Notes: a model not told the origin generated them from the letters alone. A stretch of 64,000 bases of DNA from Balanoglossus misakiensis (GCA_040954595.2 CM082579.2:10777625-10841624); one strand, 5' to 3'; shown: positions 8,589-17,939, counted from the first letter of the stretch. Numbers and translations: made by a program.

Positions 8589-11500
8589 TCAGTGTCTCTT
8601 CATGTGAAGTGCCAGATGATCTGATCGTGAGAAACATCTCTCACATCGTGTACATTTGAAAGGTTTCACCCCAGTATGTTTCCTATAGTGCCTGGTTAAT
8701 TCATCAGATCTGGCAAATCGCCACGTGCAGCCTTCCCAAGTACACTTGTAGGGTTTTTCGCCTGCAAAGAAGAATACAAAACTCAGTTTTAAAGGGACAA
8801 AGTCTCTCTCTCGCTGCCCTTTTTCCATGAATTATGTGTAATACAAGACAATGTTTATGTTATTCTAGTTTTCTACATGTAAAGATATAGTGAATCAACG
8901 TTCGACCACACACAACTTCCATTCCGTTTGTAGGATATGAGAGTAAAAATCTCGCATAAATGAATAAATGGTAAACACCAATTATTCATTTTGACGAGTT
9001 TATCACTCTTGTGTCTACAAGCGGGGTGGGAGGTGTGCGTGGTTGAATGTTGATTCGCTATATATCCATGTAGAATAACATATTGGTGTCTTGTATCAAA
9101 CATAATTAATGGAAAAAGGGCAGCGAGAGAGAGACTTTGTCCCTTTAATGTCAGAAGTAAACTGACAAAAAAAAAAACAGTGCATGTAGTCATATGGTAT
9201 TCATACAGTGTGCATGTGTAGAAATAAAATACCGTTAAAAGTCATTTTATAAGACAGGCCTTTTATGAGTAACAGTGTGTGCCGAAAAGGGGGTGCGACC
9301 GATGTTTTGTTGTTTCCATTTTCTGCAAATCTCCTCCCACACAAGTCTTTCAAAGAAGGGGTGCGACTTATAAAATGACTTTAACGGTAGCTCTTCTCAG
9401 CTCCATGGTTGTAGTTTGATGAACAACTGTCTCCCATGTCTTTCTTTGCTCTTTGGAAATAAATTTGACTGGACGGTGTGGGTCATGCTGCATAAAGCAC
9501 AATCGTTAATTTTCTGTGATTTTTTCCCATGGCCATGCATTTTGAACCGAGCAGGAAAATGGCTCACTTTCAATGTTGAGGGCTGAACATATTGTGTATG
9601 TACTGTAAAACACTTTATTTTCGCGAGCAATACATTTTCGCCAAATACGCGAGAACCAAAATAGCGTGAAAATAAAAAGTTGCGTACATTTTATTAATGA
9701 TGCAGTGAATGAAATAAGGGAACGCGAAAATTAATACTCGCGAAACAGTGGCCTCTTTCGATATAGCGAAAATTTCAACTCACGAAAATAAAGTGTTTTA
9801 CAGTATGTCAATTATGCGCACATTAAGCTTTGAAGGAAAATGACCTGTAATTCCAATCACTTCAGTGAGCATAGTGAAAAAACACACGTCTACATTCTAG
9901 ACTAGTAAAGCTGGAAAAGACAATGAGACGTGACCAAAATATAGGGAGTGACTCAGCAAAATATCTTCTGAGAAAGCAATTATCAATATAGCAACCCGAT
10001 AGTCCATATTAGCAACACCACATTATTTTCAATTTTTCAGCAAAAATGAGAAACTGAATATACTTTTAATATGAATGTTTACTCTTGTGACATTTTAATT
10101 ACTAAAGAACGGACATCTGTAATGTTATGTAAACTGCACACTACGCTACACAAAACTATTCTTGGTGGAGCAGACAGACATACCATAGCTCCAAATAAGA
10201 AACCAATAGAACTTTATTTAAGGACACTCATTGTTCTTTGTGTGTTAACATAAGAGTAACCAGTAAGGGGACTGATGACACAATACCCTACAGTGGCGTC
10301 ACAACAAACCACATCCTGTATACACAAATATTATATTGACCAAAGGTCATAACAGAACCCTCATCAGGAAATCCTCCTTTGATTGTACAACAGGAAATAT
10401 CACCTCTTATGACCTTTGCTTCAGACAAACCCACATCCTTGGGGCAGCCAAGTTTGACTGAGGTCAAGATTACAAAAGTCGGGGTTCAAACTTGAATTAC
10501 GCTGTACTGTTTCAAGAATTCCAACATTGTCATGATAATAGTGGCTGGAATACATTACCACACTTCCATTTTACTCACTGTGAAATACAAAATGTGGGTG
10601 GACGTTATTTGTGACTTGCATTTTTGTAGAGGGTGGCAGCCATCTTTGTTACTATGGTGCCCAAGTCATCTTATCAAAGTTCTCCATACCATGGACTGTA
10701 GACATGTTAGCATACTTGGCTACGATTTGGCCATATCACAGCTGAGTGGTGTAAATTTCAACTGTCATTCAAAATTCAAAAATATTACACTGTAGCTATG
10801 AAACAAAACAAACAAATTCTACGTAGTAAAACATGATCATGGCCACCTGGCAACAGAGATCACTTCAAAAGCAGAGCTGGCCAGAGTGGACCCACTCTGC
10901 TTGTTAGGGCAGTCACCTTACACCTTGTATTAAATTATGGTGGAACAAAGTGAGTTTCACAAAATCCTGACACTTTGCCAAAGAGAATTTCACTACTGAA
11001 ACCAACAGCTGGTTCATTGAAAAAGAAATGTCAAAGATCATACACATTATGACCCATTTCCTGTACGGAACCAATATCTATGTGATCTGTTTCGGAGCAG
11101 TTCAGCATTTAAGATGGTATGCTACCATTCAAATTGTCTGGATATCTATAAATTTGTAAACACCTTAGTTTTTATGCAATTTGCCAAAATCTAGATTTGT
11201 TAAAAATGTGCTATTTTTCACTTACCACAAACTCTAGTGTATTTTACTATAATCACATGGACGCATTTTACACATATTAATTTAGAGGCACCAACCCTAT
11301 ATACAAGGCCATTCTTTGAAAAATATGAGAAAGTTGGTATTTATCGTTAATAGATATGCATACCAATCTTTCTTTAGGTAACACAAAAAGTAAAAAGTCA
11401 ACCCAGTGGAAAAAACACCCAGATAAAACCTTTCCTTTGTGGTCACAACCGGGGGATGGGGGTGGGGGGAGGTGGTCATTTGCTGACAATCCACAATGTC

Positions 11501-17500: not shown

Positions 17501-17939
17501 TCCACTGTGACGATGTAAAATTATTCATTATGTCGAGAAATTACAACAACAATTACATGATGAGTATATACGCGCGATCTTGGCTGATCTTACGTCAGTA
17601 TCTCTTATATTAGAAGCGAAACACGTCAGTCTGGAATATCGAAATACTTTCTTTAGAACTGGTGACAATTTTGATATGTAGCCTGTAGTGTTCGTAGGTA
17701 CCGATGAGAACTTTCGCTGTCACTTCCTGTTTTGGAAAACCCAACGGCTACTGCGATGTGATATTTGACGACTTAGAAAACCACACCGACGAGTACTTTC
17801 GGTAATCTAAGATGTGTCAATACTTACTATCCTCGGTGCACTTTTCATATGCGCAGTACTTGTTTCGAGAAGGGCTACGGCTAGATTCTTTTACACCGTT
17901 GTCAATCGGTTCGGCACTCATCTCTGCTTTAGCCGCCAT
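8589..17939 (-). CDS. KLF12: KLF3/8/12-like Kruppel-like factor with N-terminal AN1-type zinc finger and PLDLS (CtBP-type) motif; 7 exons, ~299 aa
   Basis: GT-AG exons with matching phases: 17939-17828, 15551-15509, 14945-14897, 14326-14194 (KSEPLDLS), 12941-12767, 12136-11922 ([32 protein letters not shown]), 8761-8589 ([24 protein letters not shown]...HMKRH*). Total 900 nt, open throughout. Start context aagATGGCGG. The C2H2 exons are very secure; the 5' linkage and the exact paralogue name are inferred. Confidence 0.8.
8789..9148. mobile_element. MITE family A copy
   Basis: Same TIRs and TTAA TSD; about 25 bp from the acceptor of the last KLF12-like exon. Confidence 0.88.
9230..9389. mobile_element. 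TA-flanked MITE (Tc1/mariner/pogo-like)
   Basis: ta-CCGTTAAAAGTCATTTTATAAG ... CTTATAAAATGACTTTAACGG-ta. Confidence 0.7.
9601..9805. mobile_element. TA-flanked MITE, family B
   Basis: ta-CTGTAAAACACTTTATTTTCGCGAG ... CGAAAATAAAGTGTTTTACAG-ta. Confidence 0.85.

Follow-up and report, generated by a model that had tools for sequence, protein, structure and literature searches.

Krüppel-like factors (KLFs) end in three C2H2 zinc fingers with the cysteine spacings Cx4C, Cx4C and Cx2C that are joined by 7-residue linkers, and their N-termini are usually described as disordered, with short motifs. A KLF/SP survey links the motif PVDLS to CtBP binding and gives CxCPxC as the Buttonhead box (PMC4558859). 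AN1 zinc fingers have the ligand order CC-CC-CH-HC, and the LDFLP loop found in such fingers is exposed and has been proposed to bind proteins (PMC5035049). They occur in ZFAND2A/2B (AIRAP/AIRAPL), in ZFAND1 and yeast Cuz1, at the C-terminus of SMUBP-2/IGHMBP2 and in ZFAND3, an A20/AN1 protein which PMC7732990 reports as a nuclear transcription regulator. Here, we describe a gene from a 64,000-nucleotide stretch of the hemichordate Balanoglossus misakiensis (GCA_040954595.2 CM082579.2:10777625-10841624, hereafter the window), in which an AN1-type finger is fused to a KLF of the KLF3/8/12 type.

The fusion resembles the KLF3/8/12 proteins of vertebrates (KLF12) and molluscs in its KLF-spaced C2H2 fingers, a PxDLS motif and the helix motif of KLF12. 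It differs from them by the N-terminal AN1 finger, which was absent from all 124 non-ambulacrarian KLFs compared (none exceeded 2.3 bits with a profile of eight fingers), and by PLDLS instead of PVDLS in the four hemichordates. The finger itself is similar to finger 1 of ZFAND2A/2B in spacing, N-terminal position, two intron sites and genomic linkage, and both have an Asp after the third ligand (C3) and a Phe before the fifth (C5). In contrast to ZFAND2, however, LDFLP is replaced, residues other than ligands are only 13% identical to finger 1 (7% to finger 2), a DNA-binding domain is attached, and the second finger, the ZFAND2 C2H2 finger, the UIM and the CAAX box are missing. ZFAND1/Cuz1 provides the best match in the PDB both by sequence and by fold (7yab), with weak fold scores, but the fusion has neither R/LDFLP nor the UBL that binds p97/Cdc48. 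ZFAND3 sets a precedent for an AN1 protein in a nuclear complex at GC-rich promoters (PMC7732990), yet it lacks a KLF DNA-binding domain and PxDLS, whereas in the fusion the finger is covalently part of the factor. One C-terminal tail of the SMUBP-2/IGHMBP2 type is the best non-KLF profile match, although the SMUBP-2 finger has a longer loop, sits at the C-terminus and is followed by a different tail.

The fusion gene is located on the minus strand and consists of seven exons with an open frame of 900 nt (299 amino acids plus stop codon). All six introns are of the GT-AG type, with phases 1, 2, 0, 1, 2 and 1. Exon 1 (17939-17828, 112 nt) carries the start codon, an N-terminal tail, an RNKY motif and the ligands C1 and C2, and ends in phase 1, four codons past C2. 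Exon 2 (15551-15509, 43 nt) contributes C3 and C4 and ends in phase 2 within the C5 codon, while exon 3 (14945-14897, 49 nt, phase 2 to 0) adds H6, H7 and C8. The PLDLS motif, a predicted CtBP-binding site, lies at 14275-14261 in exon 4 (14326-14194), and the helix motif in common with vertebrate KLF12 and mollusc orthologues at 12846-12772 in exon 5 (12941-12767). Exon 6 (12136-11922) encodes a basic stretch and the first KLF finger, exon 7 (8761-8589) KLF fingers 2 and 3 and the stop codon. A first-pass annotation of the window had proposed that the three small exons splice to the pattern Cx4Cx9Cx2Cx4Cx2Hx5HxC and run on in frame through the PLDLS exon and three KLF fingers. Both proposals were borne out: these exons have AG acceptors and GTAAGT donors, all eight AN1 ligands are present and the frame stays open throughout. 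The full AN1 motif was absent from every unspliced frame of the window (0 of 6). In a tblastn search, XP_070552487.1 from Ptychodera flava matched every exon, including the orthologue N-terminus on exon 1, with 84% identity overall and 37 identical residues out of 40 within the finger. Chance splicing is excluded because this RefSeq model matches exon by exon. Judged from sequence, the AN1 exons and the KLF almost certainly form one real gene.

A search with exon 6 yielded 613 matches among 622 candidates, the best three of which were acorn-worm models. The same finger precedes PLDLS and the KLF fingers in P. flava XP_070552487.1, in Glandiceps talaboti XP_077984014/5.1 (70% identity with the window protein) and in Saccoglossus kowalevskii XP_002734231 (68%). 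Counting cluster members, finger and KLF stand together in a single NCBI model in eight other species (three acorn worms, two crinoids, one sea star and two urchins), which supports the single AN1+KLF gene first proposed. The fusion is thus real but not special to this genome, being common to hemichordates and echinoderms. A profile built from three hemichordate N-terminal halves and searched against 1.84 billion representatives gave 12 matches at E<=0.001, none of them a chordate or protostome KLF. Seven were ambulacrarian, namely two hemichordate and four echinoderm KLFs (Antedon, Patiria, Diadema, Anneissia) and one finger-only model from Asterias; the remaining five comprised three other AN1 proteins and two long repeat proteins, the latter dropped as unrelated. 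Of the 124 non-ambulacrarian KLFs mentioned above, many of which are partial sequences, 72 reach the PxDLS motif. Two pattern scans of metagenome contigs (228 and 18 pattern matches) confirmed no relative, and the hidden Markov model of the finger had no match in cnidarian KLF N-termini. A Cys motif in these cnidarian N-termini was considered as a decayed copy of the finger and rejected, since hhalign aligned the two with a probability of 0.8%, at a C2H2 finger only. Anthozoan KLF3-like proteins have a conserved N-terminal Cys motif of their own (QDQACQFD ... CxxC), which is unrelated to AN1 and has no Pfam match.

Given eight ambulacrarian species with the fusion and none among 124 other KLFs, it probably arose on the ambulacrarian stem, once in the common ancestor of hemichordates and echinoderms, whose split is placed at about 559 million years ago (Ma) in the hemichordate genome paper (PMC4729200). 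PxDLS and the helix motif of exon 5 also occur in vertebrate KLF12 and in mollusc KLFs, indicating that the KLF body is ancestral and that the finger was likely added later; its loss in both chordates and protostomes would be a less parsimonious account. The orthologues stand in RefSeq under names such as 'Krueppel-like factor 12' or 'uncharacterized'. No account of an AN1-bearing KLF was found among the literature matches listed, but prior mention is possible, as these cover the main KLF survey literature incompletely. The term 'AN1' occurs 0 times in the main texts of the KLF/SP survey, which covered Strongylocentrotus but not Saccoglossus (PMC4558859), of the hemichordate genome paper (PMC4729200) and of PMC10065570, PMC7661307 and PMC5897022.

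The finger was recognized by the Pfam model zf-AN1 (PF01428) in the seven orthologue proteins in which it is complete, with 20.2-23.9 bits (E 4e-5 to 7e-4). The gathering score of this family is 27.9 bits, and precomputed domain lists therefore show only the C2H2 fingers. Hence the combined zf-AN1 and zf-C2H2 architecture expected at the outset was recovered on the orthologues, with zf-AN1 below the cut-off, and the finger called 'perfect' deserves this term for its ligands but not for its score. It is a divergent AN1-type finger rather than a curated PF01428 member. Its Cys6His2 ligands in the order CC-CC-CH-HC are complete in 8/8 sequences, as is the conserved Phe before C5. Finger 1 of ZFAND1 (7yab) aligns with it gapless over 39 residues. 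The Atlas likewise assigns it to zf-AN1 on the basis of features (0.86, no more than a lead) as well as of fold (template modelling score about 0.6 to AN1 clusters). With regard to the cross-braced two-zinc fold of AN1 fingers, a weak model of the finger alone ranked 7yab first in Foldseek (E 0.88) and in VIA (Z 2.9, root-mean-square deviation 3.5, 43 aligned residues).

Hemichordate and echinoderm fingers are 61% identical, as against 25% for the linker and 86% for the KLF DNA-binding fingers. Besides the ligands, ten finger positions are invariant in 8/8 sequences, six of which are seen in at most 5% of ZFAND2 first fingers. The invariant surface is made up of N-K-Y before C1, Tyr after C1, Glu after C2 and Tyr-x-Ala before C3. 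At the place of LDFLP, after the first Cys pair, DFLP was found in none of the eight sequences, as opposed to 79 of 85 ZFAND2 first fingers. Net charge ranges from -2 to 0, and nucleic-acid binding is disfavoured because the finger is neutral to acidic. Pfam searches of the orthologues detected no second AN1 finger, UBL, UIM, A20 or CAAX. The suggestion that the finger is under selection, judged here by protein conservation, is supported by its higher identity relative to the linker and by the invariance of all ligands.

In 8/8 orthologues, the three C-terminal C2H2 fingers have KLF spacing and the proteins end at the last His; the Buttonhead box, a mark of SP factors, was absent from all eight. 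KLF5 and KLF4 were the top fold matches. PVDLS is present in all four echinoderms and PLDLS in the window and the three other hemichordates; the strict pattern P-V-D-L-S/T given in PMC4558859 is found in the echinoderm rows only. In the AlphaFold model of the P. flava protein, a helix at residues 164-180 coincides with the exon-5 motif. This helix motif of about 25 residues, common to vertebrate KLF12, mollusc and ambulacrarian orthologues, corresponds to no Pfam family. The earlier assignment to the KLF3/8/12 type is upheld by PxDLS, the helix motif shared with KLF12 and the nearest matches, on which orthology rests. The shared helix motif and the mollusc PxDLS speak for a KLF3/8/12 type of bilaterian age and against the convergence reading in PMC4558859.

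A candidate donor lineage lies in the same window. ZFAND2 (AIRAPL-type, 21038..28099, minus strand) is present with nine exons that extend from the second half of finger 1 to a C-terminal CSVA; its first two coding exons are absent from the window. As noted in the first pass, its exon 28099-28048 mirrors exon 3 of the fusion (52 nt, phase 2 to 0), and the phase-2 intron within the C5 codon is visible in both genes. Finger 2 of the window ZFAND2 is split once only, in phase 0. Among 103 ZFAND2 proteins, we found finger 1 in 85 and finger 2 in 98, with the same ligand spacing as in the KLF finger. In the 18 that lack a complete finger 1, the break falls at C5 in five and at the fourth codon after C2 in one; these positions correspond to the two intron sites of the KLF finger. 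Linkage of ZFAND2 and the KLF was inferred, from contigs of equal length for the two genes, in P. flava, Glandiceps, Saccoglossus (on a 577 kb contig), Patiria and Asterias. ZFAND2 is a linked neighbour on the same strand but not the next gene, as a head-to-head DUF4538 gene separates it from the fusion gene; hence, the finger exons are not ZFAND2 read-through. On these grounds, the donor was probably a first finger of the ZFAND1/2 type, and ZFAND2 itself is a reasonably probable source. From the duplication of ZFAND2 5' exons initially put forward, the ZFAND1/2-type first-finger origin is thus retained on the strength of two intron sites and linkage, ZFAND2 as the donor is unproven by a tree that does not resolve the matter, and nothing shows that a promoter was copied along.

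The finger is likely optional. Of 24 KLF models from eight species, 14 contain the full finger in frame, while 10, in five species, break it. Two alternative first exons, which join at the C5 codon, recur in both crinoids. The Met that follows C4, which in the window is the internal Met at 15522 in exon 2, serves as the first residue of models from P. flava, Patiria and Diadema antillarum. Patiria and Asterias have 17 residues inserted at the first intron site. Although the models are automatic, the recurrence of finger-breaking forms across species suggests a regulated choice and a switchable module.

Taking these observations together, we lean slightly towards an ambulacrarian KLF3/8/12 fusion whose finger was likely copied from the linked ZFAND2 and acts as an optional docking module. 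First-finger exons of ZFAND2 would have been copied onto a KLF3/8/12 gene in the ambulacrarian ancestor, whereupon the finger would have kept its zinc core and evolved a new invariant surface in place of LDFLP. Judging from the family (PMC4558859), the protein would contact GC/CACCC boxes through its C-terminal fingers and repress by means of CtBP recruited to PLDLS. The AN1-type finger would then likely have a new nuclear partner, and not p97. Finger-less forms, arising from alternative first exons or the internal Met, would allow the cell to switch this contact on or off.

Several points weigh against this proposal. The tree of DNA-binding domains (26 rows, 87 columns, without proper outgroups) gives little resolution and places the ambulacrarian rows in two separate groups. 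All orthologue models come from automatic annotation, and the comparison was made without amphioxus, pterobranch, sea cucumber, brittle star and xenacoelomorph orthologues, the first four of which leave the ambulacrarian boundary provisional. Four of the five ZFAND2–KLF linkages are chromosome-scale only, with linkage itself inferred, and the structure models are weak, with predicted local distance difference test scores of 57-78 for the finger in the full protein and 54 for the finger alone. In a 40-column tree, the KLF fingers form a clade of their own on a long branch that is not nested in ZFAND2 finger 1; grouping with the latter is not rejected (p-AU 0.34 in the approximately unbiased test), but no more than that. 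Outside the KLFs, the finger profile scores highest with the SMUBP-2-type tail (37 bits, as compared to <=26 for ZFAND2 fingers), which also groups with the KLF clade in the tree, and finger 1 of ZFAND1, the best PDB match, presumably has the same intron pattern. The finger may accordingly have come from SMUBP-2/IGHMBP2 or ZFAND1, with the proximity of ZFAND2 reflecting old synteny without causal meaning and the function as proposed above. We consider this doubtful, as the SMUBP-2-type tail represents one cluster among all AN1 proteins of the library and has an 11- instead of a 9-residue loop and a long branch, while ZFAND2 finger 1 has both of the intron sites and the ZFAND2 gene is linked to the KLF in the window species and five others. 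A far less probable explanation, to which we attach hardly any weight, is that exons 1-3 belong to a small AN1 gene of their own, or to an isoform with AN1 only, and that their connection with the KLF results from faulty annotation or minor read-through. Asterias rubens does have a 142-residue finger-only model, intron 3 contains a possible terminal exon (14768-14640, minus strand; 35 codons and a stop, with two AATAAA) from which a comparable finger-only protein would result, and the CpG-rich patch at 13751-14250 could be an internal promoter. However, the finger and the KLF share one frame in the 14 models from eight species, the donor of exon 3 is strong and in phase with exon 4, AATAAA has a background of 0.8 per kb and the possible terminal exon, with its weak, pyrimidine-poor acceptor at 14768, may be due to chance.

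Regarding the function of the finger in the proposed fusion, docking to a non-proteasome protein partner is favoured over proteasome docking, sensing, nucleic-acid binding and other roles, and we would give it about an even chance. A new partner is preferred because LDFLP is gone, UBL and UIM are missing and a new, Tyr-rich invariant surface has been kept. The idea of a p97 link, raised with the initial description of the gene, is unlikely to hold: Cuz1 and ZFAND1 bind p97 through their UBL, and the fusion protein contains neither a UBL nor a UIM. The notion that LDFLP is the p97/proteasome site is wrong according to PMC5035049. In an alternative that we regard as unlikely, the ancestral AN1 task is kept and the finger docks the repressor on the 19S proteasome, coupling turnover or promoter recruitment to proteotoxic stress. 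Cuz1 requires its finger, but not LDFLP, to bind the proteasome (PMC5035049), so that the loss of LDFLP is compatible with such docking, although the Cuz1 finger alone is insufficient (PMC5035049). Moreover, the AN1 finger of ZFAND5 binds Rpt5 (PMC11799193), that of ZFAND1 is required for PSMD1 binding (PMC7732990), and the structural Phe before C5 is kept in 8/8 sequences. Against this stand the low non-ligand identity to ZFAND2 finger 1, the missing UBL, UIM and A20 domains in the Pfam searches, p97 binding the UBL, and the vicinity of the fusion start, where no full heat-shock element but single half-site pairs only were found. It is improbable to a still higher degree that the finger is a metal or redox sensor which is unfolded by arsenite, oxidation or zinc loss, with consequences for repressor stability or activity. 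In favour of a sensor, the six Cys and two His never vary, ZFAND1/2 and Cuz1 have roles in the response to arsenite and the finger-less isoform models would represent an insensitive form; however, ten invariant non-ligand residues, three of them Tyr, suit a binding surface better than a bare sensor, and PMC5035049 characterizes the finger of Cuz1 as highly rigid and stable. The most far-reaching version, a ZFAND2-derived proteasome-adaptor finger that wires a KLF repressor to the proteasome or to stress sensing, is switched by first exons and represents an overlooked ambulacrarian synapomorphy and, with its integral AN1 finger, the first such case among sequence-specific DNA-binding factors, is likewise put forward as a speculative possibility.

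Upstream of the fusion gene, the CpG-rich interval 17940-18796 is a likely shared bidirectional promoter. It has GC boxes at 18027 and 18039 and out-of-frame upstream ATGs at 18022 and 17971. The gene on its other side (18797..19741, plus strand, ATG at 18797) consists of three small exons, matches Pfam DUF4538, stands head-to-head with the fusion gene and shares these 860 bp with it. This family corresponds to SMIM20/MITRAC7; human SMIM20 and KLF3 presumably both reside on 4p, which would be old synteny. An upstream open reading frame (ORF) of six codons (17971-17951, minus strand) is situated just before the fusion start codon, and the P. flava X1 model begins 12 residues earlier with a stretch that matches this ORF, in frame there. 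The CpG-rich patch 13751-14250 in intron 4 (observed/expected ratio 1.4-1.6) is unique in the window and may be an enhancer or internal promoter. Downstream, another KLF gene, about 8 kb away and in tail-to-tail orientation to the fusion gene, has its 3' exon at 257-550 on the plus strand, with no intron between the end of finger 1 and the two last fingers, which suggests a KLF pair at this locus.

Other parts of the window carry traces of mobile elements. An insert in a ZFAND2 intron (24472-27411) with a 119-bp direct repeat at both ends, a plus-strand frame of 181 codons with a zinc knuckle and a 34-bp tandem array is likely a retrotransposon remnant. A truncated WDR55 gene and the ZFAND2 gene that lacks its first two coding exons are separated (28100-39860) by a tandem pair of piggyBac-like elements with TTAA flanks and 99% identity (28394-39737, DDE_Tnp_1_7 ORF). 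The WDR55 gene stops at Pfam position 189 of 296, its exon ending at 39861, and the gap between the two genes points to an assembly misjoin or, alternatively, to a deletion in this haplotype that is linked to the transposons. On the minus strand, 54718-56400 comprises a 561-codon frame with an apparent signal peptide, long coiled-coil character and no Pfam family above cut-off.

In the reading preferred here, a folded zinc module of 40 residues has been kept since about 559 Ma, as dated in PMC4729200, in one KLF of one clade. The fusion would be a clean case of exon shuffling leading to a new transcription-factor architecture, with the likely donor still close by, and is a candidate rare genomic change for Ambulacraria. 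In sea star, sea urchin and acorn worm, all standard model animals in which its knockout or swap is possible, the finger has stayed concealed below the Pfam threshold. It may thus provide a natural handle on the question of what the variable loop of AN1 fingers binds.

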